Shown here: in pieces, positions 6,729 to 41,741 of the stretch
How positions within the stretch are numbered: position 1 is the stretch's first letter
Layout of the letters: every line of letters begins with the position of its first letter
Source: a virus
Lineage: Duplodnaviria > Caudoviricetes
Virus record (IMG/VR): IMGVR_UViG_3300027741_000071
Coordinates: 1-59,260 of that record
Reading direction: 5' to 3' (one strand)
Length of the DNA stretch: 59,260 bases
The notes under the pieces: model-generated
Seen by the model: the letters and a program-made list of their open reading frames with translations, nothing else
Database searches by the model: none
Told to the model about the DNA's origin: nothing
Position numbers and translations under genes: made by a program

Positions 6729-7166
6729 GTGATTGACTTAAAGCAAAACGACGAGCCAGATTTGCGCTCGGAACTCGAATGTTTTCCGAATGTAGACCCC
6801 GGTATTGAAGTTTTAGGTGACCGCGTATTAGTTCAACTACGACGCGAGAAAATAATGAGCAAGGGTGGCATCATTTTAGTTGATGAGACCAAACAAACGC
6901 TCCGATTTAATGAGACTGTTGCAAAGGTTATCCAAATTGGACCTTTGGCGTACAAAAGCCCCGATGATTTGACTCCATGGGTTGAAGGACCTTGGTGCCA
7001 AGTTGGTGATTTAGTACGAACCATTAAATACGGCGGTGATCGGTTTGTGATTCAACCAGATGATGAAGGCGCACCAGTGGTATTTATCACTGTTCAAGCG
7101 CGGGAAGTCATTTCCAAGATTCGTTCTTTTGCGGAAGCGCAAAAAATGAAGGCCTTTGTAGATTAA
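6729..7166 (+). CDS. groES: Co-chaperonin GroES-like protein
   Basis: LGDRVLVQ...SKGGIIL...VIQIGP...VGDLV...KYGG signature; GAGGAG RBS. Confidence 0.88.
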   Translation: MIDLKQNDEPDLRSELECFPNVDPGIEVLGDRVLVQLRREKIMSKGGIILVDETKQTLRFNETVAKVIQIGPLAYKSPDDLTPWVEGPWCQVGDLVRTIKYGGDRFVIQPDDEGAPVVFITVQAREVISKIRSFAEAQKMKAFVD

Positions 7167-8173: not shown

Positions 8174-8725
8174 ATGGCAAATACAAGAATTAAACGTGAC
8201 GTAGAAGATCGCTTAGCCGATCGTTTACAAGAGGTCAAGGAACGCGCCGCAACAGACGGGGCTTCCAATGCACAACGGGAACGCCTTGAAGCATTCCGTG
8301 ACAAATGGCAGAATAGTGCGCTGCCAGATATTCCTCGGGATGCAATCCCGGGAATGCATCTGTGCTGGTTGTCGACGACCAACACATATGACAGTATCGA
8401 CAAACGTGTAGCGTTGGGTTATGAACCAGTTAAAGCCAGTGAATTAGGTCAGGGCTTTGAAGGACTCGGTAAGATGAACTCGGGCAAGTTTGAAGGCTGT
8501 ATTTCTTGCAATGAAATGATTCTTTTTAAATTGCCAGAAGAAGTTTATCAAGAAGTGATGAAGATGATGCACTTAGAGGATCCTCTCGAGCATCAACGCA
8601 ATATTACATCTGCGGTTCGTGATACGGCCAAAGAAGGTAAAGGCGGTCGTTCAATTCTTGAAGGCGGTATTTTGGAAATGGAAAAAGAAGCGCGCAAGGC
8701 AAGCAAAAATATTCGGTTCTCATAA
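8174..8725 (+). CDS. Conserved head-module protein
   Basis: IPGMHLCWLSTTN and GYEPV motifs; between scaffold and capsid. Confidence 0.7.
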   Translation: MANTRIKRDVEDRLADRLQEVKERAATDGASNAQRERLEAFRDKWQNSALPDIPRDAIPGMHLCWLSTTNTYDSIDKRVALGYEPVKASELGQGFEGLGKMNSGKFEGCISCNEMILFKLPEEVYQEVMKMMHLEDPLEHQRNITSAVRDTAKEGKGGRSILEGGILEMEKEARKASKNIRFS

Positions 8726-9456: not shown

Positions 9457-10374
9457 ATGGCAACTCCAATGCGCAGTACGGACTTTCGTGCGGTAGTCGA
9501 ACCGATTATCAACGAAGTCTTTGACGGTGTTTACGAACAACGTGCCGACGAGTGGAAGGGATTTGTTGAACAGATCCAAGGTATTCCACGTAACTACCAC
9601 GAAGAAGTGATGCTGTACGGTATGAATGCCGCCCCAGCCATGCCTGACGGCACTCCTGTCAGCTATGACCAAGGCGGTACTTTGTACATCACACGTTTCA
9701 TCTATCAAATCTATGGCTTGGCATATGCCTTGACCAAAGTGTTGATGGAAGACGGTGACCATATCCGTATCGGTAGCACCTTCGCTAAGCACTTGGCTCA
9801 ATCCATGATTGAAACCAAAGAAACTTTGTGCGCTAACTTGTTGAACTTCGCGTTCACATCTGGCTACATCGGCGGCGACGGCGTGACATTGATCAACACC
9901 GCTCACCCAATCGCCAACGGCGGTTCTTACTCTAACCAGTTGTCTACAGCTGCTTCTTTGAGCCAAACTTCTGTTGAGCAATTGCTCATCCAGATCCGCT
10001 CTGCAGTTGACAACAACGGTAAGCGTATCCGTTTGAAGGCAGAACAGTTGGTTGTTCCTCCAGCTCTCGAGTTCCAAGCAGAAGTTATTCTGAAATCGGT
10101 TCTCCGCTCTGGTACAGCTGACAACGATCTGAACCCAATCAAGTCTACTGGTATGCTACCAAAGGGCACACACGTTGTGACCCGTTTGAGCTCCAGCAAG
10201 GCCTGGTGGATTCAAACTGACGCAGAAAACGGTCTCATGCTCGTTATGCGCCGCCCAATGGAGAAATCCATGGAAGGTGACTTCGAGACAGACAGCATGC
10301 GTTATAAGGCTACCGAGCGCTACGCGACCGGCTGGCACGATGCCCGTAACATCTACGGCACACAAGGCGTCTAA
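9457..10374 (+). CDS. Major capsid protein (Mu gpT-like HK97 fold)
   Basis: 305 aa; GGDGV.L...HP, LVVPPAL, GTADND.NP, EGDFETDSMRYKATERY..GW.D.R; strong codon bias; followed by terminator. Confidence 0.9.
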   Translation: MATPMRSTDFRAVVEPIINEVFDGVYEQRADEWKGFVEQIQGIPRNYHEEVMLYGMNAAPAMPDGTPVSYDQGGTLYITRFIYQIYGLAYALTKVLMEDGDHIRIGSTFAKHLAQSMIETKETLCANLLNFAFTSGYIGGDGVTLINTAHPIANGGSYSNQLSTAASLSQTSVEQLLIQIRSAVDNNGKRIRLKAEQLVVPPALEFQAEVILKSVLRSGTADNDLNPIKSTGMLPKGTHVVTRLSSSKAWWIQTDAENGLMLVMRRPMEKSMEGDFETDSMRYKATERYATGWHDARNIYGTQGV

Positions 10375-17982: not shown

Positions 17983-19212
17983 TTGAAATATAGTATTGTA
18001 ATACCAACGTATAACAACTGCGAGAAGTATTTAAAACCTTGTATTGATTCTATCATCAAATACACCGACATGAAAGATGTTGAGTTGGTGGTTGTGGCCA
18101 ACGGTTGCACGGATAACACAAGCGCGTACCTTAATTATTTAAGTTCAACTGGTATTAATTTAGTGTGGCCTTGGTACGATGAGCCACTGGGTTTTTCTAA
18201 AGCTGTTAACAAAGGTATTAGTGCCACGTCAACCGGCAAGATTGTGTTGTTAAATAACGACACAATTTTACTGGACCAGAAAAAAAATACGTGGTTGGAG
18301 CGTTTGGACACCGGTGACATTTCGGCGGTGCTGACAAACTACTCAGACATTATACAGTCCAAATTTGGCGTATTCTTCTGCGTAATGATTCAAAAAAGAG
18401 TGCTTAACCAAATTGGGCTGCTGGACGAGCAGTTTGAGGTCGGTGGCTGCGAGGATATTGATTTTTGTTTTCGGGCCCTGCAAGAGGGGTTTAAACTCGT
18501 TGACGTGGGCCATTTAGGTGACTTCCCAATCTACCATGTGGCCGAGGGTACGGTACATGATGAAACGTTGGTAAAAGGCTGGAAGCATTTCTTTTCTGAA
18601 AATGAGCTAAGGTTGGCCAGAAAACACAACATGGACCACTATCGTTTCTTGTTGTCAAACAACTACGAGCGCGCGGTGTTTCTAAAAGGTGACCCAGTGT
18701 TCCCGCGCGAGACACAGCGCTACGAATGGGCCGCAAAGAATCTGGTTGGCGAGCAGGTGTTGGAGATTGGGTGCTCCACCGGCTACGGCTACCAGTTTTT
18801 GCCAGAGGGCACGACGTACATGGGGTTGGATTACGACGAACAGATTATTGGGATTGCGAAGGACCAACAGTGGTCTGACAACGCATCGTTTTACCACGCG
18901 GACATTAATACGTTTGAGCTGGGCCGGTACAACACCATTATTGCTTTTGAGGTAATTGAACACCTTGATAATGGTTTGGAGGTTGTTGAAAAGCTAAAGA
19001 AACACTGCAAGCGCTTAATGATCACGGTACCGTACAACGAGCCTAAAGGGTTTTGGGGCGAGCATCACAGGTTACACGGTTTAACAGAGAAAGATTTCCC
19101 AGGGTTTAATTTTGCCTACATTGACTTCAACGGCAACATTACGGACACAAAGAACGACGAGTCTGGTGACAACCCCGCCAACTTGATGATCTGTTGGTGC
19201 GACAATGAGTAA
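17983..19212 (+). CDS. Glycosyltransferase family 2 fused to SAM-dependent methyltransferase
   Basis: SIVIPTYN, LLNND, EDIDFC (GT-A fold); VLEIGCSTGYG and FEVIEHL (class I MTase). Confidence 0.88.
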   Translation: MKYSIVIPTYNNCEKYLKPCIDSIIKYTDMKDVELVVVANGCTDNTSAYLNYLSSTGINLVWPWYDEPLGFSKAVNKGISATSTGKIVLLNNDTILLDQKKNTWLERLDTGDISAVLTNYSDIIQSKFGVFFCVMIQKRVLNQIGLLDEQFEVGGCEDIDFCFRALQEGFKLVDVGHLGDFPIYHVAEGTVHDETLVKGWKHFFSENELRLARKHNMDHYRFLLSNNYERAVFLKGDPVFPRETQRYEWAAKNLVGEQVLEIGCSTGYGYQFLPEGTTYMGLDYDEQIIGIAKDQQWSDNASFYHADINTFELGRYNTIIAFEVIEHLDNGLEVVEKLKKHCKRLMITVPYNEPKGFWGEHHRLHGLTEKDFPGFNFAYIDFNGNITDTKNDESGDNPANLMICWCDNE

Positions 19213-20179
19213 GGTTTTGTGCTCGGTGGCAACCCGAGGACGTTACCATACGACGTTGCCGTTGGTGTTAAACGCCATCATTAACCAGACCAAGGTTCCG
19301 GACAAGTTGATCATCTTTGATGACAACGACGAGTTCCAAGACATGCGAAAAGAGATGATTTATCAATACTTTTTTCAAATGCTGGATATCAAGAAGATTG
19401 CGTGGGAGTGGCGGATTGCAGAAAAAAGGGGGCAGCACTTTATTCATCAGCAGGCAAACACCGCTGGATTTGATTGGGTATGGCGTGTTGACGATGATGC
19501 AATCCCAGAGCCGAATGTGCTCGAAATTTTGCATTCATATACAAAACGGAACAATAAATTAGGTGCGGTCGGCGGGGCCATTTTGACCCCGCCCAATTTC
19601 CCTGATACTTCAAAGGTGACTGGCAGGATTGACGACATAAGTAAAGAGCCCAACTGTCAATGGAATATGGTTAGCGGGGTTAAGGTTGTTGAGCATTTGC
19701 ATTGTTCTTTTTTGTATCGTGCGGGCGTATATGACTACAACTTGGGGCTGTCGCGCGTGGCGCACCGAGAAGAAACGTTGTTTACCTGGGGGCTGCACCA
19801 AAAGGGCTACCAGATTCTAGCGGTTCCAAACGCGGTGACTTGGCACATGAAGAACCCGCAGGGTGGCATTCGTAGTGAAACTAACATGGACATGTATAGA
19901 CACGATGAGGAAATATTTAATAATTTCATCCGGTGCCGCGACAAAACTATTGTGGTTCTTAATTGTGGCCGTGGGGATCATATTGTATTTAAACGTGTTC
20001 TTCCGTTGATTAAAGACCCTATTGTGTTTTCTTGCTACCCAGACATTGTTCCCGGAATGGGGATTAAAGATGCAGTTAGCTATTTTGGGCATATTGACCA
20101 ATGGAGCATCTATAAAAAAATGGGTCAATGGAATTGGACAGAGAGTTTGGAGAACGCTTTTAAAAAGTTGTACCTATGA
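19205..20179 (+). CDS. Glycosyltransferase family 2
   Basis: QTKVPDKLIIFDD, WRVDDD (DxD motif), HREET; C-terminal GRGDHIVF resembles the start of a GT9 domain. Confidence 0.82.
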   Translation: MSKVLCSVATRGRYHTTLPLVLNAIINQTKVPDKLIIFDDNDEFQDMRKEMIYQYFFQMLDIKKIAWEWRIAEKRGQHFIHQQANTAGFDWVWRVDDDAIPEPNVLEILHSYTKRNNKLGAVGGAILTPPNFPDTSKVTGRIDDISKEPNCQWNMVSGVKVVEHLHCSFLYRAGVYDYNLGLSRVAHREETLFTWGLHQKGYQILAVPNAVTWHMKNPQGGIRSETNMDMYRHDEEIFNNFIRCRDKTIVVLNCGRGDHIVFKRVLPLIKDPIVFSCYPDIVPGMGIKDAVSYFGHIDQWSIYKKMGQWNWTESLENAFKKLYL

Positions 20180-20610
20180 TAGTTATATCTCCTTATTCTC
20201 AAAAGTTAAGAACGGGTAAAGAAAACCCAAAAAATTACCCGTATTGGAAAGAGTTAATTGCGTTAATTGACGAGCCAATTGTTCAGGTTGGGGTTGACGG
20301 CGAAGATCAGCTTGTTGACGATTTTAGAAAAAATCTGTCAATGGACGAGTTGGCATCCGTCATTCGCGAATGCCGAATATGGATATCGTGCGATAGTTTC
20401 CTCCAGCATTTTGGCTGGGACTTAGGGAAAAAAGGTATCGTGTTGTGGGGCCCGTCTGATCCATTGGTATTCGGCCACCCTGAAAACGTTAACCTGTTGA
20501 AGGATCGTTCGTATTTAGTCAAAGATCAGTTTATTTGGTGGGAAGCCACGGAACACGAAAAAGAACGATTTGTGGAACCACAAGTTGTTTTGCAATATTT
20601 AAAGGAATAA
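20176..20610 (+). CDS. Glycosyltransferase family 9 (heptosyltransferase-like) C-terminal domain
   Basis: KNYPYW..L, ISCDSFLQH, GIVLWGPS.P..FGHP. Confidence 0.78.
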   Translation: MIVISPYSQKLRTGKENPKNYPYWKELIALIDEPIVQVGVDGEDQLVDDFRKNLSMDELASVIRECRIWISCDSFLQHFGWDLGKKGIVLWGPSDPLVFGHPENVNLLKDRSYLVKDQFIWWEATEHEKERFVEPQVVLQYLKE

Positions 20611-20614
20611 CAAA

Positions 20615-22114
20615 ATGGCAGCTTCAGGCTATACAAAATTACAATTATATTATAGCTCGACGTCGGGAGTCGCGCCCACAGGTACCAACTTGATCGCCGG
20701 AGAGTTGGCGCTTAACACTTTTGATGGGAAGCTGTACTTTAAAAATACAAGTGGTGCGGTAACCTTGCTGGCCTCTGCAGCTGGGGCGGCTGCGGCCACT
20801 AATATTTTTGGTGGCGCGTCCGGCCAAATCCCGTTCCAAACGGCTGCAAGCACAACCAGCTTTATCACAGCCCCTGGAACCTCTGGCACGTATTTAAGCT
20901 GGAACGGATCCGGTTTTTATTGGTCTAATGGACTCGGATTGTCGGGAACCAGCGGATATTCAGGCTTCTCTGGATTTAACGGCGCCAGTGGTTTGTCGGG
21001 CTTTAGTGGCTATTCCGGCATTTCTGGTTATAGCGGCTACAGCGGATATTCTGGCAATAACGGAACTAGCGGTTTTTCTGGTTATAGTGGAATTTCTGGT
21101 TATAGCGGTTTTAGTGGAATCTCTGGCTTTAGTGGTATTTCTGGCTTCAGCGGCTTTTCTGGTTACAGCGGTTCCGGTACTTCGGGCTACAGCGGTGCAA
21201 CCGGCACATCCGGTTTCAGTGGTTATTCGGGATTAAACGGCGCAACAGCAGCATCCGGATTTAGCGGTTACAGCGGCTATTCTGGATTCTTGGGTAACTC
21301 GGGATATTCAGGCTTTAGTGGCACTTCGGGCTACAGTGGTTCTGGCATTTCAGGCTACAGCGGATTCTCAGGCTATTCTGGCTTAGGGTTGTCTGGTTAT
21401 AGCGGCGGTAGTGGTTACAGCGGTTTAAACGGCACTTCAGGCTATTCCGGCATTTCTGGCTACTCGGGGTACAGCGGCTCTGGCGTGTCCGGCTACAGCG
21501 GTTTTAGTGGCATCTCGGGCTATTCTGGCACGACACCAACCGCGGTGGCAAACTTGTCCGGCGGATCTGTTGGCGCGCTGCCCTACCAATCAGCTGTTGG
21601 CACAACATCATTTTTAACTAACCAAACCGGTAGGGTTTTAGTTGGTGGTGCGGCTACGCCCTCATATGCCTTGCAGTCGAGTTTATCGGTTGGTTCGGCA
21701 ACAAACGTTTTGGGCGGCAACGCAAACCAAATTCCTTATCAATCTGCGACTGACACAACAGCGTTCATTACTGCACCGACAACGGGTTCTACATCAAATC
21801 CTGGTTTTGTGGCTTGGAACGGCACTGGGTTTGTTTGGTATCGTTGGTTGACTTTCTTAACATCCAGCAACATTAACGGCTCGTTAGGTTATACTGCGGC
21901 GGATGCGGCTGGTTCAAACGCTACGGGCACATGGTCAATTAGTATTACAGGTAACGCAGCAACAGCAAATTCGGTGGCCAACACTGGCGGCTGGAGCGTG
22001 ACACCAAGCGGCACTAAATTGTATTTTTCTTACAATGGCGTAAACGTGGGTTCTTTGGATTCATCCGGAAACTTCATAGCTAAAGCTAACGTAACAGCTT
22101 ACGGCACACCGTAA
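20615..22114 (+). CDS. Second fibre protein with Gly-Tyr/Phe-Ser collagen-like tract
   Basis: GELALNTFDGKLYFK head-binding-type N-term, (GYS/GFS)n tract, NVTAYG C-term. Confidence 0.8.
   Translation: MAASGYTKLQLYYSSTSGVAPTGTNLIAGELALNTFDGKLYFKNTSGAVTLLASAAGAAAATNIFGGASGQIPFQTAASTTSFITAPGTSGTYLSWNGSGFYWSNGLGLSGTSGYSGFSGFNGASGLSGFSGYSGISGYSGYSGYSGNNGTSGFSGYSGISGYSGFSGISGFSGISGFSGFSGYSGSGTSGYSGATGTSGFSGYSGLNGATAASGFSGYSGYSGFLGNSGYSGFSGTSGYSGSGISGYSGFSGYSGLGLSGYSGGSGYSGLNGTSGYSGISGYSGYSGSGVSGYSGFSGISGYSGTTPTAVANLSGGSVGALPYQSAVGTTSFLTNQTGRVLVGGAATPSYALQSSLSVGSATNVLGGNANQIPYQSATDTTAFITAPTTGSTSNPGFVAWNGTGFVWYRWLTFLTSSNINGSLGYTAADAAGSNATGTWSISITGNAATANSVANTGGWSVTPSGTKLYFSYNGVNVGSLDSSGNFIAKANVTAYGTP
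20935..21530 (+). repeat. Low-complexity coding repeat (SGY/SGF)n
   Basis: About 200 aa of G-x-S triplets; boundaries approximate. Confidence 0.85.
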
Positions 22115-22123
22115 GGAAAAACT

Positions 22124-23290
22124 ATGGCATTACCTACCGGTACCATATCACTGTCGGACGTTAACACCGAGTTGGGGTACAGCTCGACTGCACTAATTTC
22201 ACTAAATGACGCCGCCGTGCGCGCGCTCGCCGGTGTGGCAAGCGGTGCTATCAGTATGAGTGATTTGCAAGGGAAGTCGGCCCAAACTCCTGCTATTGCT
22301 TTAGCGACTTATGGCAGTCCTAACATACTTGCGTATCCTTGGTCAAGTTCCACTGGTTTTGGCACAAAGTATGCTAATCCGGCCACGCTCCCAACGGGTA
22401 ATGCAAATGGAATCGCGTTCAGTTCTGACGGAACGGCTATTGCTGTAGCTCACACAAGTACCCCATACGTAACCGCATATCCTTGGTCAAGTTCTACCGG
22501 TTTTGGCACAAAATATGCTAACCCATCTTCGCTTCCACCGGGTATTGGGCGCGCAGTTGCGTTTAGTGCTGACGGAACGGCTATTGCTGTAGCACATTTG
22601 ACGTCCCCATACATAACTGCCTACCCTTGGTCTAGTTCCACTGGTTTTGGCACAAAGTATGCTGATCCGACTACACCCCCAACGGGTAATACAAATGGAA
22701 TCGCGTTCAGTTCTGACGGAACGGCAATTGCTGTAGCGCAAACAAGTACCCCATACATAACTGCTTACCCTTGGTCAAGTTCTACCGGTTTTGGCACAAA
22801 ATATACTAACCCATCCTCGCTTCCGCCTGCGACTGGAAATGGAATTACATTTAGTCCTGACGGAACGGCTATTGCTATAGTGTGCGCAACAACACCATAT
22901 ATAAATGTTTACCCTTGGTCAAGCGCCACTGGTTTTGGCACAAAGTATGCTAATCCGGCCACGCTTCCTTCAAACATTACAAATGGAGTTGCGTTTAACC
23001 CTAGCAGTACGACCCTTGCTGTGGCGTACATATCTTCACCCTATATATCTGCCTACCCTTGGTCAGGAGCGGGTTTTGGCACAAAGTATGCCAATCCAGC
23101 AACGCTTCCGCCAGCTTTTGGAAATGGCGTTTCATTTAGTGCTGACGGCAATGCCGTTGCTATAACGCACGCAACATCCCCATACGTAACCGCGTACCCT
23201 TGGGCAAACGCCACGGGTTATGGAACAAAGTATGCTAATCCGTCCACGCTTCCGACAGGCACGGCATATGGAGTTTCTTTTAAATCTTAA
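22124..23290 (+). CDS. Fibre-tip adhesin with 7 near-identical ~46-aa repeats (putative beta-propeller)
   Basis: ISLSDVNTELG..ISLND..VR.LAG..ISMSDL.GKS attachment-type N-term; seven YPW...GFGTKYANP units. Confidence 0.78.
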   Translation: MALPTGTISLSDVNTELGYSSTALISLNDAAVRALAGVASGAISMSDLQGKSAQTPAIALATYGSPNILAYPWSSSTGFGTKYANPATLPTGNANGIAFSSDGTAIAVAHTSTPYVTAYPWSSSTGFGTKYANPSSLPPGIGRAVAFSADGTAIAVAHLTSPYITAYPWSSSTGFGTKYADPTTPPTGNTNGIAFSSDGTAIAVAQTSTPYITAYPWSSSTGFGTKYTNPSSLPPATGNGITFSPDGTAIAIVCATTPYINVYPWSSATGFGTKYANPATLPSNITNGVAFNPSSTTLAVAYISSPYISAYPWSGAGFGTKYANPATLPPAFGNGVSFSADGNAVAITHATSPYVTAYPWANATGYGTKYANPSTLPTGTAYGVSFKS

Positions 23291-23299
23291 AGGAAAATC

Positions 23300-23554
23300 A
23301 TGGAAAATCAAACACGCGAACAAATTTTGGCAGCATCTTTGGATGCCCGAGTGCAAGAGATAATGCTCTACCAAATTAATATTGACAACTACACGTCGGC
23401 GTTGGAGGTGATTGAAAGCCTTCCCGAACAAGATCGTGATGAATTAAAAGTATTTGCTAATCAACTTCAAAGCCTGTTGGCGTCCGAGATATTGGAACAG
23501 AAAAAAGCCAACATTATGTTAACGGTTGTTAAGAAACAACTTACAGCAGGATAA
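23300..23554 (+). CDS. Hypothetical helical protein
   Basis: 84-aa ORF with AAGGA RBS. Confidence 0.7.
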   Translation: MENQTREQILAASLDARVQEIMLYQINIDNYTSALEVIESLPEQDRDELKVFANQLQSLLASEILEQKKANIMLTVVKKQLTAG

Positions 23555-25537: not shown

Positions 25538-26125
25538 ATGGACGGATTTAAGACACTACCTAAAATGCAGCACTTCAAAGAAGGCGGCGCAGCTTATTGT
25601 GGCGGCGGCAGCATGAAGATGAAGACTGGCGGCAAAGCTGACAAAGATGACATGAAGCAAGACAAGGCCATGATCAAAAAGGCTTTCAAGCAGCATGACG
25701 AGGCTGAGCACGACAAAGAGCCAACAGAAATCAAACTGCGCGCTGGCGGTCGTTCCAAGAAAGAAGCTGGCACTGTGCGTAAGTTCAAAGTTGGCGGCAT
25801 GGTAGATAACGACTACGGAGCCAAAAAGTCATCTGGCGACCTGGACAACATTAAAAAGACAAAAGACATAAAGCCCGGCAAAGCCAAAGCGGAGTCTGCT
25901 GCTATGAAGCGCCCAGCTTTGCGCGGTTCTGACGTTGAGAAAGAAAAGAGCAAACCAGCTGGCGAGAAGGACATGATCAAAAAAGTGCCCCCAACTGGCG
26001 ACAAAAAGGCGGATGCTGAATCCGCTGGAGAAAAGCGTCCCAGTTTCCGCGGTTCTGATGTTGAGAAAGAAAAAAGCAAACCATCTGGCGCTAAAAAGAT
26101 GAACACTGGCGGGACAGCTTGCTAA
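25538..26125 (+). CDS. Lys-rich late protein with six hydrophobic-x-x-GG motifs
   Basis: FKEGG, YCGGG, MKTGG, LRAGG, FKVGG, MNTGG; internal duplication [12 protein letters not shown]; AAGGA RBS. Confidence 0.8.
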
Positions 26126-26295: not shown

Positions 26296-27369
26296 ATGGC
26301 TTATTCAAACACGACTGGGCAAACGACAATTAACGTCGACCAGTTAATTTCATTTGCATTTCGTGATGCGGGTAAGACTGCAGAAGAGATGACGCCTGAG
26401 TTGGTCGGTGCGGCTAAGCAGGCGTTATTTTATAACTTGCAAAATTTGTCTAACCTTGGTGTAAACCTTTGGTTATTGGAAAACCAATTGTACGGTGCTT
26501 TAACACAGCAACAGCAATTGGTTTTACCTAAAACGACAATTGACGTGCGCGAAGCTAACTGGGTGTACGTACAAAATTTACAGGCGTCTGTTTATTTGCC
26601 AACAGACAACTCAACTGCACCAGCTGCGTTTGATTTAAACTCTACGTTGGCATCTTACGCAACATCGACCATAGCCAAAAATTATATTGGTTTAGGCTAC
26701 CAACAAGCACAAAGTGTATATTATGTTGGCTGGAACTGTTATGCACCAAATGGCGGAACACAGACATATAACCTGGTGTACGAGTATAGCAACGACGGTA
26801 TTAACTGGACTGTTAAGCAAACGTTTCCGGCTATTACCATGGTTGACAAACAGTGGCAGTATTACAACATCTCTATCACTGAACCGCATTTGTTTTACCG
26901 TTTGCGCGAAACAGTAGCAACAACATTCTCGGTACGTCAGATAGTATTCTCTACCAGCCAACAGGTAATTCCCTTAGCGCGTTTAAACCGAGACGACTAT
27001 TGGAACCTGCCAAACAAACAGTTCCCGTCGGTGCGATCATTGCAGTATTGGTTTGACCGCCAAATTCAACCGTCGATGTATTTATGGCCAGTGCCAAATA
27101 ACAACTACCAAATGTTCCAGCTTATTGTTGAAAAACAAATGCAAGACGTTGGGTCCTTGACAAACCAAATCTACGTGCCTGATCGCTGGATTAACTGTGT
27201 ACAAAAGCAGCTGTCGCATTCTATGTCAATGCAGTTACCTGGCGTAGAGATGGCGCGCATTAACTATCTGGATGCACAGGCCCAAAAAGCATTCTTGCAA
27301 GCCAGCGAAGAGGATCGTGACAAGTCTCCGATCTATTTCCAACCTAACTTTAGCTACTACACAAGATGA
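26296..27369 (+). CDS. Head-tail adaptor-like virion protein with inserted beta-sandwich domain
   Basis: N.GVNLW, LARLNRDDY.NLPNK, YLWPVP, EEDRDK; central EYSNDG..W..YRL insertion. Confidence 0.65.
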   Translation: MAYSNTTGQTTINVDQLISFAFRDAGKTAEEMTPELVGAAKQALFYNLQNLSNLGVNLWLLENQLYGALTQQQQLVLPKTTIDVREANWVYVQNLQASVYLPTDNSTAPAAFDLNSTLASYATSTIAKNYIGLGYQQAQSVYYVGWNCYAPNGGTQTYNLVYEYSNDGINWTVKQTFPAITMVDKQWQYYNISITEPHLFYRLRETVATTFSVRQIVFSTSQQVIPLARLNRDDYWNLPNKQFPSVRSLQYWFDRQIQPSMYLWPVPNNNYQMFQLIVEKQMQDVGSLTNQIYVPDRWINCVQKQLSHSMSMQLPGVEMARINYLDAQAQKAFLQASEEDRDKSPIYFQPNFSYYTR

Positions 27370-27980
27370 GCGCCATAATGACCTATGATTCGCTCGTAGC
27401 GAATATTATTGACTATATGGAACGCGACGACGCAGATTTCGTTGCGGCTATTCCCGGCATGATTGCGCTGGCTGAGTCTTCAATCGCTGCTGAATTGCGG
27501 TCTTACATCCAGCTCATCGTTGTTGAAACAAATCTGGCACAAAACCAAGTTACATTGACCAAGCCCGCGCGCTGGCGTAAAACCGTCAGCATGAAGGTAA
27601 ATGGCCAGCCCATGTTGTTGCGCAGCCAAGATTATCTGGCGCAATATCAAGCGGAATCCACAAACGGAATGCCTAAGTATTATGCGGAATATGATTTTTC
27701 TAACTGGGCGTTTGCTCCAAAACCGGATGCATCGTACCCAGTGGAAATTATCTATTACGCTGAAATTCAACCATTGGATAGCGTCAATCAACAAAACCTG
27801 TGGACCTCTGTGGCACCGCAGGCCATGTTGTTTGGGTCCTTGCTGCAAGCTCAGGGCTATTTAAAGGCGCTCGATAAGCTGCCGGTATGGAAAGCATACT
27901 ACACCGACGCAATTGCTGCGCTTAAGAAAGAAGACGATCTGCGCCGCGTTGACCGTAACACATCAGTACAGGAACCATAA
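27366..27980 (+). CDS. Tail adaptor/tubular protein (putative)
   Basis: MTYDSL...DY.ER, G.PKYYA, APKPD..Y, LFGSL.A..YLK. Confidence 0.65.
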   Translation: MSAIMTYDSLVANIIDYMERDDADFVAAIPGMIALAESSIAAELRSYIQLIVVETNLAQNQVTLTKPARWRKTVSMKVNGQPMLLRSQDYLAQYQAESTNGMPKYYAEYDFSNWAFAPKPDASYPVEIIYYAEIQPLDSVNQQNLWTSVAPQAMLFGSLLQAQGYLKALDKLPVWKAYYTDAIAALKKEDDLRRVDRNTSVQEP

Positions 27981-31708: not shown

Positions 31709-32137
31709 ATGCCAATAAACAAATCCCAAGCACAAAATAACGCGACAATGTCTACGCAAGACATTGTCAAGAATTGTGACGAGATTAAGGATTCAGGTCA
31801 GGATTGGAGACAAGCGTATGCCGCGTTGCATTCCATGTTGGAATCAAACCAGTACCGCATAATGCGGGCCGGCAACACGTTATTTTTAATAAAACTTTTG
31901 GAACAAGGCACTGCACAGATGTTTGTGTTTAACGCCGATAGTCCTAAAAACTTTTTGAAAAATACTAAAGAGTTTTTTAAGGCCATGAAGGCTGCAAAGT
32001 TCCACACAGTTTTTGGGATAACAGAAAATCCCCAAATTATAAAAATGTTGCAGCACACGGGTTATGAAGTTGATGTAGAAAACGTTGGAAACGACGATAA
32101 GGGCCAACCTTTATACAAGGGAACGGTCCATGTGTAA
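31709..32137 (+). CDS. Hypothetical protein
   Basis: 142-aa ORF after promoter. Confidence 0.7.
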   Translation: MPINKSQAQNNATMSTQDIVKNCDEIKDSGQDWRQAYAALHSMLESNQYRIMRAGNTLFLIKLLEQGTAQMFVFNADSPKNFLKNTKEFFKAMKAAKFHTVFGITENPQIIKMLQHTGYEVDVENVGNDDKGQPLYKGTVHV

Positions 32138-35100
32138 TCCGTTACAAGAACTTGAGAATACCGTTAACGGTTTTGGTGGAATAATCTTGGGGCTTCCCGG
32201 TTCTACTAAAAAAATACTTAATGGTGTTGGGAGCGCATTTAACGCTGTAAATAAAACAGTGGACGCAATACTTCGCAACCCGCTGCCAACTATTGAAACG
32301 GTAGCATTAACATCTTTAGGTGTTCCGCCAATAATTGCTAACGCAGCAGTGGCGGCGGCAAACGGCGGCAACATCAATCAAATAGCTTTATCTGCGCTTA
32401 CGGCTTATGCAGGTAGCAAAATAGGTAGCTACGCAGCCGGCGCAGTTGGAACTGAAAGTGCGTTGATTAAGCAAATTGTTGGCAGCTCATCTGGCATGGC
32501 TGCTGTTGCTGTGTTAAAAGGGCAAAATCTTCAGCAGGTATTAACCGCTGGTGCAACTGGTGCGATTAACGCAACTATATCAAATCAACTTGCACAACAA
32601 GGTTTTACAAAAGTAGATAACCAAATCCTTTCAAACGCCTCAACGGCAGCAATTAAAGCTGTACTTGGCGGTAAAGACATAGGCGCTGCTATTGGTGCAT
32701 CGGTTGCATCTACAGCTATCCAAGCTGCGTTGTCTGGAAAAATAGACCAGATAAATAAAAACAATGAGATGGGTAAAGGTTTAGTTAGTCAATATACTAA
32801 ACTTAGTTCTCAAGCCAGCGATTGGTTCAATAAGAATCTTGCGCCAACTCAAGACAAAGAAAACCAACTTTATAATTCTTTACAAACTGACCAAAACCAA
32901 TATAATAAATCAAAGATGGAATATGATAGTGCCGTTAATAGGTACAATTATTATTCAAAGTTTTCGGGGGATTATTACGTAAATACGGCTGCAAAAGAAG
33001 TTGAACTTGCCAATTCACTTGTAGACAAAATGAATTTGCTAGGCGCAGATATGTCTACAAAATCTGAAGAGTTTTCCAACGTACATGCCGAAGCTGAAAA
33101 AGATAGACAGTATTACAAATCTACGTATGAAAATCCATTAACTTCTATAACCAATAAAGTAGAAGAAATAAATAGGGCAAACGATTACGAGTCAAAAAAT
33201 GTTGGCTATTTAGTTGCTAGGTACGAAGATCAAATTACTAAAGACCAAACCAACATAGTTTCAGCTATTGCCAAAGACGCAGTAAAAGAAGCTCAAGATT
33301 TGTTGCAAAAACAAGCTGAGCCTACACCTGCACCTGCACCTGCACCTGCACCTGCACCAACACCTGCACCAGAACCAACACCTGCACCTGCACCTGCACC
33401 TGCACCAGAACCAACACCTGCACCTGCACCTGTTGCACCAGAACCCACACCAGTAGCACCAGAACCCGCACCAGTTGTCCCGCAGCCCGCGCCTACGCCA
33501 TCCGTTCCGCAATTTACGCAACCTGATTCCGAGCTTGTTGGCGCTGAGGCGCAGGACGATGGAACGACTGTTGAAAAATTTGCCGATGGAACAACGCAAG
33601 TTGTTGACTCATTGTCTGGTAAAATTTTAAGTCAAACAGCACCAGCACCGGTGCCTGAACCAGAAGCACCGACTGGTGGATTGGATGTGGTAGCACCAAC
33701 ACCAGCATCCGAACCAGTACCTGAATTAAAAGCGCCAACTCGTGGATTAGATGTAGTAGCGCCCCCAACACGAGAACCGGTGCCTGAACCAGAAGCGCCA
33801 ATGGGTGGATTGGATGTGGTAGCACCCCCAGCACCCGAACCAGAACCAGTGCCTGAACCCGAAGCACCAATGGGTGGGTTGGATGTGGTAGCACCTCCAA
33901 CACCAGAACCGGTGCCTGAACTAAAAGCGCCGACCGGTGGGTTGGATGCAGTTGACCCAATTGTGAATCAAGAGGCTCCTGTTGAAACTGCACCTCCAAG
34001 CACTTTGGACACTGTGGTACAGACCAATCAAGACGCGCTAAATACAGCAATCACTTCTAATAACCCCGATTTAGTGGACGCTGTAGTTAACGGCAACGAA
34101 GATGTTATTACTGCTTTGGCAAACGGCGATGTTGACGCAGCTACTAATTTAATTGGCGGCGCAGACACCAGCGTGCCTGATATGCCTGATGTTCAACAAC
34201 CTGAAGAAGAGCAGCCACCTGAAGAAGAGCTGGATACTAACGTCCCCGGTTTGCCATCTATTGATCAGACCGTTGAAGAAGAGCAGCCACCTGAAGAAGA
34301 GCAGCCACCTGAAGAAGAGCAGCCACCTGAAGAAGAGCAGCCACCTGAAGAAGAGCAGCCACCTGAAGAAGAGCAGCCAGACGATGGCTTTGGCCCTATA
34401 AGAATTCCAAGTGGCACGGGCTCAATATCAACGCCAAAACCACCATCAAGACCCACGTCGGCACCAACAATAGCACCAGCACCGGCACCAACAATAGCAC
34501 CAGCACCGGCAGGAACAAACACTATGAGCACAACTGGAACCAGCGGGTACCAAGACCCCAAATTAGATTTTACGCCGCATCTTGTAAAGGGCAGCGCAAT
34601 CAATTTAGTTGGACAACCAACGTTTCGGGAAATATACACCCCGCAACAACAAGCGCAAGCCCCGTCGCCTTACACAGACGGCATGATGGGTTACGCGGAA
34701 GGCTCGTCTGTCAGCATGCAGCCCCAATTTACCCGCGGGCGCGCTCAATTTTTGCAATCAATGTTGCACCCAATGGCTCGGCCACAAGTCGGGCCACAGC
34801 GTTTTGAAAGCCACAGCGAAGGCCACGAAGTTGGTGAACACCAGCCAGAGTTTTATAGCGAAGGTGGTTTAAAATCAATCGAGAACAGATACGTTACGGG
34901 CGACGGCGACGGCACCTCCGACTCGATTCCAGCTATGTTGGCCAACGGTGAGTTTGTTATTCCCGCTGACGTTGTGGCAAGTTTAGGCAACGGATCAAAT
35001 GAATTCGGTGCCTCCGTGTTGGATCAGTTTATGAAAGCTATTCGCGAGCATAAACGCGACGCACACCCCGATCATTTACCGCCTGATTCAAAAGGGCCGT

Positions 35101-35138
35101 TAGCTTATCTGCAAGAAGCACAAAAGAAAGTTGCATAA
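32130..35138 (+). CDS. Large internal virion/ejection protein with Pro/Glu-rich repeats
   Basis: ATG 32130 (MCNP); Ala/Gly helices, PA and PEPEAPxGGLDVVAP repeats, EEEQPP repeats, C-terminal GDGTSDSIPAMLANGEFVIPADVV motif. Confidence 0.7.
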   Translation: MCNPLQELENTVNGFGGIILGLPGSTKKILNGVGSAFNAVNKTVDAILRNPLPTIETVALTSLGVPPIIANAAVAAANGGNINQIALSALTAYAGSKIGSYAAGAVGTESALIKQIVGSSSGMAAVAVLKGQNLQQVLTAGATGAINATISNQLAQQGFTKVDNQILSNASTAAIKAVLGGKDIGAAIGASVASTAIQAALSGKIDQINKNNEMGKGLVSQYTKLSSQASDWFNKNLAPTQDKENQLYNSLQTDQNQYNKSKMEYDSAVNRYNYYSKFSGDYYVNTAAKEVELANSLVDKMNLLGADMSTKSEEFSNVHAEAEKDRQYYKSTYENPLTSITNKVEEINRANDYESKNVGYLVARYEDQITKDQTNIVSAIAKDAVKEAQDLLQKQAEPTPAPAPAPAPAPTPAPEPTPAPAPAPAPEPTPAPAPVAPEPTPVAPEPAPVVPQPAPTPSVPQFTQPDSELVGAEAQDDGTTVEKFADGTTQVVDSLSGKILSQTAPAPVPEPEAPTGGLDVVAPTPASEPVPELKAPTRGLDVVAPPTREPVPEPEAPMGGLDVVAPPAPEPEPVPEPEAPMGGLDVVAPPTPEPVPELKAPTGGLDAVDPIVNQEAPVETAPPSTLDTVVQTNQDALNTAITSNNPDLVDAVVNGNEDVITALANGDVDAATNLIGGADTSVPDMPDVQQPEEEQPPEEELDTNVPGLPSIDQTVEEEQPPEEEQPPEEEQPPEEEQPPEEEQPPEEEQPDDGFGPIRIPSGTGSISTPKPPSRPTSAPTIAPAPAPTIAPAPAGTNTMSTTGTSGYQDPKLDFTPHLVKGSAINLVGQPTFREIYTPQQQAQAPSPYTDGMMGYAEGSSVSMQPQFTRGRAQFLQSMLHPMARPQVGPQRFESHSEGHEVGEHQPEFYSEGGLKSIENRYVTGDGDGTSDSIPAMLANGEFVIPADVVASLGNGSNEFGASVLDQFMKAIREHKRDAHPDHLPPDSKGPLAYLQEAQKKVA
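33320..33955 (+). repeat. (PA)n and PEPEAPxGGLDVVAP coding repeats
   Basis: cctgca hexamer runs and six ~60-bp units; boundaries approximate. Confidence 0.85.
34275..34379 (+). repeat. 18-bp tandem repeat GAAGAAGAGCAGCCACCT x~6 (EEEQPP)
   Basis: Direct inspection. Confidence 0.92.
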
Positions 35139-38069: not shown

Positions 38070-41000
38070 ATGGGTGACGAACACATTGACATTGATGCTG
38101 CTTTAAAAGATCACCCCGCAGATGTAGTTGCCGCTGAGCTGGCAAAACTCCACGGTGTGGATCGTGACGCGTATTTAAAAGATGGTGTCACTGACGACCA
38201 ATTTTTAAATGAAATGCGTGGACAGGCACTGCCCAAAACAGAAGCGCCCGCCCCCACACAAGAGTCAACTCTTTCTGAACCCAACAACGCTACTAACGTT
38301 GTGTATGGCACAATTGCCGCGGCAGCTCCCGCTGCTGCTGGTTATGCTGCTAACAAGCTCAAGGGCGTAGCATTATCTGTTGCTGGGAGTAAGGGTGTTC
38401 CTTCAATGGATACCACAACACCTTCAAAAACTTTTGCATCTCCCAGTCAGGTCAGCGCGCGCGTAACGCAAGCGGGCCAACCACCACGCCCAAGTGGCCC
38501 AACCGATGTGGTTAATTGGGCGTCGGGTAAAGACGAGCGTACCGGCCAATATGGCCGCGGTTACCTGGGCGGTACAAGTCTTGAGCACGAAGCTGCGTTG
38601 CACAAACAAGCCGACGCGTTGGAAGCAAAAAGCCCCGGCTACAAAATTAAACCAGGGACATCTAATTTTCTAATTCCAGAGGCTGAGTACAACAAACTGG
38701 TTAGTGAAGCCAAAACAGCTGAAACCTCCGCTAAAGAGGCATTAAGTAACAAAGCTAAGATGGCCGCGGAGCTGCGTGCTAATCGTTTGGCTCAAATTAA
38801 TTCAACCAACGTACCAGCTAAAATCGCTAATAATATTAGTAGCGCCCCTGTAGCTAAACGCTTTATGACTGGCTATAACGTTGGCGATTTGTTGCAAGCA
38901 CAAAACCCATTTGAGGCAACTGTTTCGGCCGCTGGTGCTGCAGCTCCTTATGGTGCGGGAATGGTTGAAAAATTCATACCGCAAAAATACAAAGGACTTG
39001 CAAAACTGTTAGGCCCTGTAGTTAGCACTGCAGCACCTGCAATTAATTACCTTGAGCGCAAGTTGATTTCCCCATCTCAGCAACAAGATGAAAGCAATAT
39101 AAACCACGCAGCCGGTGGATCTATACAAGGCTATGCTGGTGGAAAAGCCGTCAAAGGTGCGCTGGATTTTTTGTTCAAACCCCGGCCAACACAAATCGTA
39201 AGAGCAAGCGAAGCGTTGGCACCACACGAAGGAAAGTATCTAGGTCTAACACAGACAGATAATTTTGGTGTGCATGGGGATCGTATGGGTGGCAATCAAT
39301 TTCCTAACTTCCAAAATATAAAGCCATTGCATCAACAGCACGGCGTTGTGTGGATGAACGACGCTGAGAAGCATGCACAAGACATGGTCAAGCGTAGTAA
39401 TGACAACACGGTTTGGTCAACATACATTGGCGCACCGGATCAATTGAAATCCAACAAAACGGTTTTCAATGACATTTTGCAACAACATTACAAAAGAGAT
39501 TTGACACCAGAGCAGATTGATTTAATTAACAAGCGCATTGAAACCTTGCGCCCTGCTCCTGGTAAACCTCTTGTCTTCCCACAGAAGTTTGACATCCAAG
39601 ACAAGTTTGCCGCACAAGAATTGGGTGGTGATACATTTGCACGCCGTGCTGCGTTGGCTGATATGCTTGGTATGGGTAAAGGTGTTGGCTCAACCAAGAG
39701 CGGCATCGCTATGCCAGACTACGAAAACATCTTGCGATCACACCGTGATCCGATAACAGAGGGTGTTCCAACAAGTTCTGTTGGCTCTCGTTTGTTTACA
39801 GTCGACCCAACTAGGAATGCACAGTTTACACAAGACTTCCATCCCGATTACAACTACGCTGTGTTTGGTAAAGACCAAGGCGTGCAGTTTAATCCTGTGC
39901 CACAAAACTTAGCTGTACCTGATTGGTATAACGAGATCAACGCGCGCGCACCAGGTAAGACACATGGTAACGCATGGTTCTCATACATGAACAACCCCCA
40001 GCGAATCACTGAGGAGTATTTGACTAACCTGCAAAAAGCTGGTCACGCCGAAGGTGGTGAAGTGCAGGGTTACGCTGGCGGAAAGGCTGTGACTGGTGCG
40101 TTGGAGTACATCGGAAAAAAGATATTGCCCGCGGCTGAGCGGGAGGCCAACAAGGCCAAGTATTTAGAAAACAGTGTTGTTAAAACGCCGATGTACCACG
40201 GCACATCCAGCGACATAACAGAATTCAAGCCAAGAACCGCTAACACTATTTTTGTTACGTCTAACCCACGATTCGCTCAAACGTTCGGTGACGCTCACCA
40301 GCAACGGTTAGTGAAAAATGTAAAAGACAGAATGCCCGATAAAGAGTTTCTGGACATTATGCGTGGCGGCGGTTACGACAACTTAGATACCGTTGTTAAT
40401 TTGGGACTGCCTGCACGTCAAAACATTATGCCTGTGCATGTGAATGCAACAAACCCTTTCGACTACGAGAACCCACAGCATGTTGAATCATTGTTTAACG
40501 AACTCAGCAAAGCCGATGGCGCACCATCTACTCATTCTTTAAGTCACGGTGCTTGGAATTTACTCGAGCTCCCACACGTACAAGCTGGCATTAAAAACCT
40601 TGGCCATGATTCGTACTTCGTGCAAGAAGGTGGGCAAAAGAATTTAGGTCTGTACAAGCCAGAACAAATTAAATCTGCAATCGGTAATGAAGGTTCTTTC
40701 AACCCATTAGACCCAGACATCACTAAGAAAGAAGGTGGTGAGGTCGAGGGCTACGCCGGCGGTAAGGCTGTCGGTAAAGTAATCAGCCAGGTCCCTGAAG
40801 TGGCTCAGGCATTGGAAGCATACTTACGTGGGCACATCTCCAACGCTGAGCGCATGGACATTTTAAATAAGCACTTGCCTATTCGCAAATGGAACGAGCT
40901 GCCACCAAACTATACCAACGAACAGATCCGCGCAGCGTTGATGGCAAACAAGCAACCTAAAGCATTGGCTGAGGTTCCCGTTGGCATGCAGGTAGGCAAT

Positions 41001-41741
41001 CGACTGGATATCCCAGCTTACACACAAAACGGCGTGTACGTAGACACCGTGCACAACGCAAAGGGCGCTCCAATCAGCTACAACCGCACTGGTCACCTGA
41101 AGGATGTTGAATTTAGCTCTAAACCCAACCAGGCGGTTCGTGTAGGCCTTGGAACCAAGGAGCAGGCCCTTACCCCTATGGGCGCTGAAATGGGCTCTGG
41201 AAAGTCCCCTTTTGCGCTTATGAAGGGTACTAACATCGGCACCCACGATGACGAAGTGCGCCGCATGATGCAAGAGTATCTGAACGATCCTAACTGGACA
41301 CAGATCGGCATGGACCCACGCCGTAACTCTCAGTTCTATGACAAGTCTACCGGCTTACCAGTTTTCTCCGCAACCGAGAAGCTACAGTCTGGTCCGTTAG
41401 TTATGGTGCCAAAAGGTGGCCTCGAGTCATCGCACTGGGAAGACCCGCGTTTGTTGCTGTCTGACTTTGAGGGCAAGCACTATGCCGGTGGTGGACACGC
41501 TACACCAGCATGGCAACGCTCAGAGGGTAAGAACCCAGAAGGTGGATTGAACGCTGCTGGACGTGCGTCATACAACCGTGAACACGGCGCTCACTTAAAA
41601 GCACCGCAGCCCGAGGGTGGATCACGTAGAGATTCTTTCTGTGCCCGGATGGAAGGCATGAAGAAAAAGAATACGTCGTCTGAAACGGCCAACGATCCAG
41701 ACTCACGCATCAACAAGTCGCTACGTAAGTGGAAGTGTTAA
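38070..41741 (+). CDS. Polyvalent multidomain protein with ADP-ribosyltransferase-like (ART-PolyVal-like) module
   Basis: MYHGT..F...IFVT.NP.FA..F...IMPV.V...NPFDY...GHDS...EQIKSAIGN.G.F; C-terminal TPAWQRSEGKNPEGGLN...RINKSLRKWKC; modules separated by GG linkers. Confidence 0.75.
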   Translation: MGDEHIDIDAALKDHPADVVAAELAKLHGVDRDAYLKDGVTDDQFLNEMRGQALPKTEAPAPTQESTLSEPNNATNVVYGTIAAAAPAAAGYAANKLKGVALSVAGSKGVPSMDTTTPSKTFASPSQVSARVTQAGQPPRPSGPTDVVNWASGKDERTGQYGRGYLGGTSLEHEAALHKQADALEAKSPGYKIKPGTSNFLIPEAEYNKLVSEAKTAETSAKEALSNKAKMAAELRANRLAQINSTNVPAKIANNISSAPVAKRFMTGYNVGDLLQAQNPFEATVSAAGAAAPYGAGMVEKFIPQKYKGLAKLLGPVVSTAAPAINYLERKLISPSQQQDESNINHAAGGSIQGYAGGKAVKGALDFLFKPRPTQIVRASEALAPHEGKYLGLTQTDNFGVHGDRMGGNQFPNFQNIKPLHQQHGVVWMNDAEKHAQDMVKRSNDNTVWSTYIGAPDQLKSNKTVFNDILQQHYKRDLTPEQIDLINKRIETLRPAPGKPLVFPQKFDIQDKFAAQELGGDTFARRAALADMLGMGKGVGSTKSGIAMPDYENILRSHRDPITEGVPTSSVGSRLFTVDPTRNAQFTQDFHPDYNYAVFGKDQGVQFNPVPQNLAVPDWYNEINARAPGKTHGNAWFSYMNNPQRITEEYLTNLQKAGHAEGGEVQGYAGGKAVTGALEYIGKKILPAAEREANKAKYLENSVVKTPMYHGTSSDITEFKPRTANTIFVTSNPRFAQTFGDAHQQRLVKNVKDRMPDKEFLDIMRGGGYDNLDTVVNLGLPARQNIMPVHVNATNPFDYENPQHVESLFNELSKADGAPSTHSLSHGAWNLLELPHVQAGIKNLGHDSYFVQEGGQKNLGLYKPEQIKSAIGNEGSFNPLDPDITKKEGGEVEGYAGGKAVGKVISQVPEVAQALEAYLRGHISNAERMDILNKHLPIRKWNELPPNYTNEQIRAALMANKQPKALAEVPVGMQVGNRLDIPAYTQNGVYVDTVHNAKGAPISYNRTGHLKDVEFSSKPNQAVRVGLGTKEQALTPMGAEMGSGKSPFALMKGTNIGTHDDEVRRMMQEYLNDPNWTQIGMDPRRNSQFYDKSTGLPVFSATEKLQSGPLVMVPKGGLESSHWEDPRLLLSDFEGKHYAGGGHATPAWQRSEGKNPEGGLNAAGRASYNREHGAHLKAPQPEGGSRRDSFCARMEGMKKKNTSSETANDPDSRINKSLRKWKC

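Follow-up and report, generated by a model that had tools for sequence, protein, structure and literature searches.

A recurring Gly-Gly peptide lies at the module boundaries of a polyvalent protein in a podovirus-like phage

The IMG/VR virus record IMGVR_UViG_3300027741_000071 (Duplodnaviria; Caudoviricetes) comes from a podovirus-like phage with a ~59-kb genome. It was analyzed over its whole length of 59,260 bases (hereafter the window), and its completeness is estimated at 91%. The late operon ends with its largest gene, which encodes a polyvalent protein, P0001, whose five modules (M1–M5) are separated by four Gly-Gly (GG) peptides (linkers L1–L4). The same kind of peptide is found at the places where related proteins differ in module content and order, and at the ends of many complete proteins of the family. 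The elements of the gene are listed below.

38070..41741, + strand: P0001, an open frame with an ATG start, encoding the 1223-residue polyvalent protein
38070..39104, + strand: M1 (residues 1–345), the N-terminal module, with Ala/Gly-rich, mildly hydrophobic stretches
39105..39152, + strand: L1, HAAGGSIQGYAGGKAV (residues 346–361)
39153..40043, + strand: M2 (residues 362–658), confidently predicted to fold as an alpha/beta domain with a helical insert
40044..40091, + strand: L2, HAEGGEVQGYAGGKAV (residues 659–674), GG invariant in alignment A1
40092..40724, + strand: M3 (residues 675–885), an ADP-ribosyltransferase of the ART-PolyVal family
40725..40772, + strand: L3, KKEGGEVEGYAGGKAV (residues 886–901)
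40773..41477, + strand: M4 (residues 902–1136), the most widely shared module in the family
41478..41498, + strand: L4, HYAGGGH (residues 1137–1143), a single half-unit, GG invariant in alignment A2
41499..41738, + strand: M5 (residues 1144–1223), a basic module (isoelectric point, pI, 9.9) of the DUF6321 family

A reading made from the sequence only had proposed five modules, including an ADP-ribosyltransferase-like one and a basic C-terminal one, with the GG peptides at the domain boundaries, and both proposals were borne out. M3 matches Pfam ART-PolyVal (PF18760) over residues 708–877 with an E-value of 1.1e-11 and a score of 46.1 bits against a cut-off of 31.2, and M5 matches DUF6321 (PF19846) over residues 1153–1221 with an E-value of 1e-20. 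M2 and M4 were modeled with AlphaFold2 as parts of the segments 340–680 and 880–1223, using alignments of 59 and 60 sequences, and the models have mean predicted local distance difference test (pLDDT) values of 85 and 80, respectively. In these models, pLDDT falls below 50 only at residues 340–363, 661–680, 880–904, and 1134–1144, segments that coincide with the four linkers. In other phages, free-standing DUF6321 proteins start with M-A-K-S-P-AWQRKEGK, and this start aligns with ...HYAGGG|HATPAWQRSEGK of P0001; thus, L4 ends where an independent protein starts.

M1 has no family match and is conserved as a unit in homologues. Its hydropathy peaks reach only 1.05–1.13 (residues 77–95 and 310–328), and a transmembrane anchor is not claimed. 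M2 likewise has no family match, and its best Foldseek hit against the PDB has an E-value of 0.44. A wide VIA search with M2 returned YTH/ASCH-like and death-fold entries with a best Z of 6.1, below the tool's noise guide of 7–8; the YTH/ASCH-like alignment has a root-mean-square deviation of 3.6–3.7 over 125–126 residues. We note that, if these weak YTH/ASCH/PUA-like fold matches are real, M2, with its inserted six-helix bundle, could read a modified nucleic-acid base. The M4 model is confident, with ten-residue pLDDT block means mostly of 89–97, and the module has 26 invariant columns that include Arg, Asp, Tyr, His, Lys, and Gln. M4 found no counterpart among solved structures (Foldseek against the PDB, best E 0.55; VIA, best Z 2.5), the profile built from alignment A2 had 0 matches among PDB sequences, and no named ESM Atlas cluster was usable. 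In BFVD, the matches of M4 were exclusively multidomain proteins of uncultured phages. M4 could represent a new fold that contains an active site. The fold searches with Foldseek and VIA identified neither M2 nor M4 as a protease or as a protein of another function.

The three ~16-residue GG peptides and the HYAGGG peptide noted earlier were found at their positions at frequencies far above chance. Each of the 16-residue linkers is composed of two half-units of the form [H/Y/F/K]-[A/K]-x-G-G-x-hydrophobic. Pairs of these linkers share 10–13 of 16 residues, whereas the best pair in each of 30 shuffled versions of P0001 shares at most 9 (mean 7.4). In P0001, six copies of the half-unit [YFH]A(x)GG are present against an expectation of 0.19, a count reached in none of 5000 shuffles. 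Across 121 proteins of the family, the motif was counted 254 times, compared with 20.9 ± 4.6 in shuffled sequences. At 213 distinct motif sites, the aromatic position is occupied by Tyr, Phe, or His in 185 cases and Ala precedes x-GG in 185; GG is frequently followed by Lys or Leu. In the alignments of 59 and 60 sequences, the GG columns show no variation. Judged from these sites and alignments, the motif is position-specific and goes beyond mere Gly-richness, and its putative family consensus reads G-[Y/F/H]-A-x-G-G-x-[V/I], often doubled as GG-x-V-x-G-Y-A-G-G-K-A-V.

The linkers had also been described as better conserved in peptide than in DNA sequence, and this description holds. The DNA copies of the linkers share 28–36 of 48 nucleotides, with longest identical runs of 5–11 nucleotides, and a repeat search gave identities of 66% and 85% over 41 nucleotides. 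Among the 10–13 codons that encode the same residue in two linkers, 6–9 differ synonymously. The synonymous divergence and the short identical runs argue that selection acts on the peptide rather than on the DNA. There is no sign of recent gene conversion among the linker copies.

Relatives of P0001 were collected by a word-seeded search, which found 263 proteins of similar length (120 of them listed), and by a second search, which found 171 shorter ones (120 listed); they derive from freshwater and marine records. A metagenome scan revealed no relative closer than 57%, so breakpoint mapping was restricted to the protein level, at which P0002 and P0003 are 86% and 68% relatives, respectively. 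The ends of BLAST alignments with P0001 cluster at residues 350–380, 670–700, 890–920, and 1140–1160. In an all-against-all BLAST comparison of 121 proteins, 36.5% of the internal similarity breakpoints (n = 24,360, derived from high-scoring segment pairs that are not independent events) lie within 15 residues of the motif; random positions gave 6.2%, and no more than 6.6% in any of 200 randomisations.

The modules were then mapped in 239 relatives (P0002 to P0241 minus P0006, a fragment identical to the window), a module being counted as present when a single high-scoring segment pair covered 70% or more of it, and two modules as neighbours when –10 to 80 residues lay between them. A GG unit was present at all junctions between adjacent mapped modules (219/219), and the strict form [YFH][AK](x)GG at 125 of the 219, compared with 3 of 430 equal-length control windows inside modules. 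Junctions that lack the strict form bear variants of it, for example KAEGGLVHLQSGG or HYEGGGKV.

Individual relatives illustrate several kinds of module change at these junctions. P0003 is 93% identical to P0001 before L1 but only 10% after it, and 33% identical before L2 but 97% after it; by this identity profile, M2 is replaced in P0003. In P0007 and P0012, M4 is absent exactly from L3 to L4. Six relatives (P0004, P0005, P0010, P0011, P0025, and P0027) have the order M4-M3, and others carry SLT, PcfJ-like, or unknown modules; the SLT lytic transglycosylase domain (PF01464) was detected in 19 of 120 homologues among the matches listed. At one locus (L003), the modules are split over two adjacent genes, the second of which ends with ...GYKKGGKVKKKKK, and at another (L005), two successive genes both end with ...GGLAHL.... 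Replacement, loss, reordering, and gene splitting thus all fall at the motif when homologues are checked for module changes at the linkers. These comparisons support an architecture of cassettes joined at a conserved GG joint.

The motif goes with the module that precedes it. The sequence leading up to the GG is characteristic of the kind of module (...YLTNMQKEGYAxGG for M2, ...DFEGKKYAxGG for M4, and ...DPDIxxxxGG for M3), so the first half-unit is part of the preceding module. Furthermore, GG is found in the last 12 residues in 40 of 120 near-length relatives and in 20 of 120 shorter relatives among the matches listed, compared with 12.8% and 8.0% of random windows, respectively. Contig ends may have cut some of the short proteins, which would not create a pattern of GG ends. 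Typical relatives end with ...KKYKKGGKVKKK, ...YAGGGKV, ...NYAQGGLTHL, or ...KKGGLAALKKKK, and in many proteins of the family the end consists of GG followed by poly-Lys. A protein of a named phage, gp58 of Roseobacter phage CRP-207, combines several of these features: it contains an M4-like domain (~29% identity), two copies of the motif (GYAEGG and FAEGG), and a GG-poly-Lys end (...KDGGLASKKKRKKKK), and its gene lies just after the portal gene. The sequence-only reading had treated the motif as a linker. It does sit at module boundaries, but a pure spacer does not account for its presence at the end of many complete proteins; a motif that also ends whole proteins does more than space two domains and behaves as a C-terminal tag of each module.

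We also observed a GG end of the polyvalent type in Caulobacter phage GB2A (L251), the nearest cultured relative as judged by the adaptor (38% identity), in which the annotated 580-residue tape measure protein (21783–23525) ends with ...IRYMDGGRV.

The P0001 gene closes a block of late genes on the + strand, and from position 41742 onward the replication genes occupy the minus strand. The features of the late block that bear on the following analysis are listed below.

1349–2794, + strand: terminase, with complete Terminase_6N and 6C domains
2835–3383, + strand: 182-residue protein, between the terminase and portal genes
3383–6232, + strand: portal-like gene, 949 residues, unusually long
6729–7166, + strand: Cpn10/GroES-like gene (PF00166, E 6.8e-07), within the head-assembly module
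8174–8725, + strand: 183-residue protein, between the scaffold-like and capsid genes
9457–10374, + strand: capsid gene
17983–20610, + strand: three glycosyltransferase-type genes (a GT2-methyltransferase fusion, GT2, and GT9-like), inside the structural block
20615–22114, + strand: collagen-repeat fibre gene, directly after the glycosyltransferase-type genes
25538–26125, + strand: Lys-rich 195-residue protein (pI 9.7), downstream of the lysis genes
27366–27977, + strand: SU10-type adaptor (tail tube A; PF24175)
32085–35138, + strand: 1017-residue protein
34854..34871, + strand: FYSEGG, residues 924–929 of the 1017-residue protein

The late block also encodes an M15 endolysin and a virion structural protein, and its final genes encode proteins of 1017, 330, 640, and 1223 residues. 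The P0001 gene thus follows the adaptor gene, a nozzle-like gene, and the genes for the ~1000-, 330-, and 640-residue proteins. The series of genes for a ~320-residue, a ~600-residue, and a large protein is kept in relatives and in GB2A. This location is the one where T7-like podoviruses keep their largest ejection protein, a likeness of position only; P0001 matches none of the gp16 families in Pfam and PHROGs, searches in which distant homology could be missed.

Several other features of the block deserve mention in their own right. The open reading frames (ORFs) at 369–1358 and 1349–2794 (both on the + strand) adjoin each other, and both match terminase large subunit PHROGs; the match of the former is weak (E 1.8e-09) and covers part of a very long profile. 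In the portal-like protein (3383–6232), the portal profile covers only residues 181–629, and the long C-terminal extension is Gln-rich and coiled-coil-looking. The Cpn10-like gene (6729–7166) recalls phage-encoded co-chaperonins for capsid protein folding. The glycosyltransferase genes (17983–20610), which stand beside the fibre gene, may serve the glycosylation of some virion component.

The GG motif was initially regarded as a feature of P0001; it is present there but is not confined to it, as it recurs in other late proteins of the phage. The strict motif has three occurrences in the rest of the proteome against 2.7 expected, and no match in the 27 minus-strand ORFs scanned. Because this count on its own is not significant, the argument for the other late proteins draws on conservation within families and on the Lys-rich protein encoded at 25538–26125. 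The latter contains six hydrophobic-x-x-GG units (0.44 expected) as well as a 21-residue internal repeat. Its 41 distinct homologues, all from viral contigs, contain 4–9 units each, with a mean of 6.46 compared with 0.59 in shuffled sequences, and a median spacing of 16 residues. In this family, the unit has the form K-[YFML]-K-x-G-G-x-[VAI]-K-K, and copies of the YAxGG form are few. The Lys-rich protein appears, from these units, to share the motif class of P0001; it is probably disordered, and small basic peptides of the head may derive from it.

In the 182-residue protein encoded ahead of the portal gene (2835–3383), GYAGG (residues 19–23) and IQHFAGGKEV (residues 54–63) are found. Its family keeps [FL]A(x)GG at the second site in 8 of 10 members, and in all 10 the first 60 residues are highly conserved, with divergence setting in right after the HFA(x)GG motif. 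The C-terminal module of the 1017-residue protein (IPAMLANGEFVIPADVV...) comes after FYSEGG, and in gp58 of CRP-207 such a module comes after FAEGG.

With these features, P0001 is a member of the phage polyvalent proteins (PMC5512222), a class of virion-associated polypeptides that carry many unrelated effector domains each and whose architecture is described in that paper as extremely variable (Iyer et al. 2017). P0001 has multiple effector-type domains, an ART-PolyVal match above the cut-off, a context of virion genes, and an architecture that varies among 240 relatives. The same paper proposes that zincin-like (MPTase) or assemblin-like peptidase domains contained in the polyvalent proteins split them into their separate domains; in P0001, no built-in peptidase domain was detected. 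The words 'linker' and 'glycine' have 0 occurrences in the main text of PMC5512222, in which the junction peptide is not described; the supplements could list this architecture. Both PMC4819975 (Hardies et al. 2016) and PMC8954989 (Swanson, Hou, Cingolani 2022) describe passenger domains that reach the cytoplasm with ejection proteins, as well as the exchange of functional domains between such proteins, and the available text of these papers does not mention a reiterated junction peptide. Compared with ejection proteins of the T7 gp16 type, P0001 is likewise the last and largest of a three-gene series that follows the tail-tube genes, and some of its relatives carry a lytic transglycosylase domain; P0001 itself has neither a lysozyme nor a lytic transglycosylase domain detectable with Pfam, and no gp16 sequence or profile match was found for it with Pfam and PHROGs.

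The closest parallels to the peptide come from systems in which virion precursors are cut. The adenovirus protease cuts at (M/I/L)-x-G-G|x and the African swine fever virus (ASFV) protease pS273R at G-G|x. Both are clan CE cysteine proteases of eukaryotic viruses, and their substrates include strongly basic DNA-associated proteins, to which the Lys-rich protein described above may be compared. By this consensus, the hydrophobic-x-(x)-G-G form is present at all four junctions of P0001, in segments predicted to be disordered; P0001, however, has an aromatic residue at the hydrophobic position, with Ala next to it. Since no clan CE protease was found in the window, the peptide would work like the GG sites of adenovirus and ASFV without being a member of these systems.

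In phage T4, internal proteins and the Alt ADP-ribosyltransferase are loaded into the head by a capsid targeting sequence, which is cut by gp21, and are injected with the DNA. Each of these T4 proteins has one such signal, at its N-terminus; the signal ends in L/I-x-E and depends on the S77 protease. As in T4, an ADP-ribosyltransferase and a small basic protein here share a short peptide, but the T4 signal is single and N-terminal, whereas the tag considered here is reiterated and C-terminal to each module. The different position of the tag and the absence of an S77 protease match set the present system apart from that of T4. Fixed exchange points are also known from the polymorphic toxins, in which VENN of CdiA and PxxxxDPxGL of Rhs mark the point of cassette exchange. 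These are found at one boundary per secreted bacterial protein, before a single C-terminal toxin, whereas the GG peptide is found once per phage module. In the text available for the MuF-toxin paper PMC5576092, there is no mention of a boundary motif, linker, cleavage, recombination, or VENN, and that of PMC10386132 and PMC12014285 contains nothing relevant to a GG joint. A literature search found no paper on DUF6321 and none on a Gly-Gly prohead protease of bacteriophage. Polyvalent or internal virion proteins are an established class, and no description of the GG joint was found in the literature, supplements aside.

From the position of its gene, P0001 is probably a cargo protein that is packaged in the head and ejected. 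We propose that it would be a string of five autonomously folding modules, each ending in a disordered, conserved GG peptide, and that this peptide, as a short linear recognition motif, would mark where each cargo module of the phage lineage ends on its C-terminal side. We consider the chances about even that the peptide is read in this way by the virion-building machinery, the reader itself being postulated. In the leading version of this proposal, which we put forward tentatively, a not yet recognised protease cleaves after GG; cleavage would release the effector modules from one another and break the Lys-rich protein down into small basic peptides. In the other version, a rather unlikely one, the peptide stays uncleaved and acts as a multivalent tag that loads or anchors the cargo in the head. 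In either version, the presence of the same edge on every module would allow modules to be replaced, deleted, reordered, and split without harm to their folds, which explains the cassette pattern. A motif that is disordered, position-specific, selected as a peptide, placed at module edges and protein ends, and shared among proteins fits a motif that is read better than a mere hinge. The sequence-only reading had gone further and taken the peptide for a cleavage or capsid-loading signal between swappable effector cassettes. The modular cassette design at the GG joint stands, while the signal function is still conjectural and no protease was found.

A more specific form of the cleavage proposal can be stated, and it is possible but no better than tentative: the head protease of a large group of aquatic podoviruses would cut at aromatic/hydrophobic-[A/K]-x-G-G, in convergence with adenovirus and ASFV, and the protein encoded at 8174–8725 would be the first candidate for it. 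In the capsid, such an enzyme would convert the P0001 precursor into separate injected effectors (ART, M2, M4, and DUF6321) and the Lys-rich precursor into small DNA-condensing peptides, and the shared site would make the modules plug-in cassettes. The 183-residue candidate is encoded where head proteases often lie and is enzyme-like in appearance. Its family comprises 365 clusters at E ≤ 0.001, in which Asp73, Arg78, Gly82, and Glu114 are invariant and His62, Trp65, and His133 nearly so. The His/Asp/Gln/Cys order seen in this protein was dropped as a catalytic signature, Cys109 and Cys112 being kept in only 34–41% of 135 sequences. A Pfam scan of 60 members of the family found nothing below E 0.05, the family profile had one match in the PDB at E 1, and the ESM Atlas returned only 'hypothetical' viral clusters.

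A number of observations weigh against a motif that is read or cut. Six-frame searches of the window for Peptidase_S78, C48, C5, S77, S49, and C39 had no match; for clan CE (PF00770, C5; PF02902, C48) this applies at E ≤ 1, and the gp21-type prohead protease family S77 was represented by PF03420. Among the ORFs scanned with Pfam and PHROGs, a set that leaves aside small minus-strand ORFs, the sole peptidase-type match was the M15 endolysin. As the record is estimated to be 91% complete, a protease gene could be missing from it. The candidate at 8174–8725 has no conserved Cys or Ser in 135 aligned sequences and no Pfam, PHROG, or PDB-sequence match. Where the motif lies at a protein end, a cut would remove just 2–9 residues, and a site that serves cleavage alone would make little sense there. 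The predicted disorder and the GG itself are equally expected of a passive hinge, and the argument for packaging of P0001 is purely one of gene position. The last late gene of GB2A, which encodes a 722-residue protein with an SLT-like C-terminus, has no such linkers. Finally, RYAAKGG in the scaffold-like protein was not counted as a conserved site, as its GG is kept in only 36 of 61 homologues.

The strongest competitor, to which we assign a modest probability somewhat below that of cleavage, is that the peptide is a passive hinge and recombination joint. The GG would be a flexible spacer that lets the protein unfold and refold module by module during passage through the tail, neither bound nor cut, and its conservation would reflect reuse as the site where recombination joins cassettes. 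All linkers are indeed predicted to be disordered, modules are exchanged exactly at them, the phage encodes a Gp2.5-like annealing protein and an exonuclease that could support recombination at short homologies, and neither a reader protein nor a protease was found. A hinge, however, has no need for an invariant GG after aromatic-Ala, and the linker DNA, with its synonymous divergence and its short identical runs of 5–11 nucleotides, offers poor homology for recombination and points to selection on the peptide. Moreover, 60 of 240 proteins keep the motif at their extreme C-terminus, with no further module to be hinged or joined, and 4–9 copies occur per protein in the disordered Lys-rich family, which has no domains to separate.

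The peptide might also be read after ejection, by a host protease or degradation machinery that releases the effector modules or times their action. Consistent with this, no phage protease was found, and the residue after GG is often Lys or Leu; in the bacterial N-end rule, an exposed N-terminal Lys or Leu makes fragments short-lived, as would be expected here if these residues became exposed. We regard this explanation as improbable, because the motif is constant although the hosts are probably diverse (freshwater and marine records), and because the many-copy Lys-rich protein resembles a head component associated with DNA more than it does an effector. Still less probable, in our view, is that the GG unit and the basic residues beside it form a hook that holds on to the packaged DNA, so that the modules leave the head with the DNA. 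The Lys-rich form of the unit, the many protein ends that consist of GG and poly-Lys, and the basic terminal DUF6321 module would suit such a role. Yet the linkers of P0001 are neutral or acidic (HAEGGEVQGYAGGKAV among them), it is Ala and not Lys that precedes x-GG in the polyvalent family, and no tool matched a known DNA-binding motif. We retain a motif read during virion building as the preferred explanation, at the even chances given above.

If the GG peptide is such a read signal, it would represent a compact and portable rule for head loading or in-head cutting, used in hundreds of uncultured freshwater and marine phages, and would explain how anti-host effectors are shuffled so freely among them. 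It would also set the module boundaries of many proteins of unknown function, including M2, M4, DUF6321, and other cassettes, and foreign cargo could be loaded into phage particles by means of it in a simple way. Should the peptide be no more than a joint, the family still offers an unusually clean natural case of domain shuffling at a fixed, recognisable junction.

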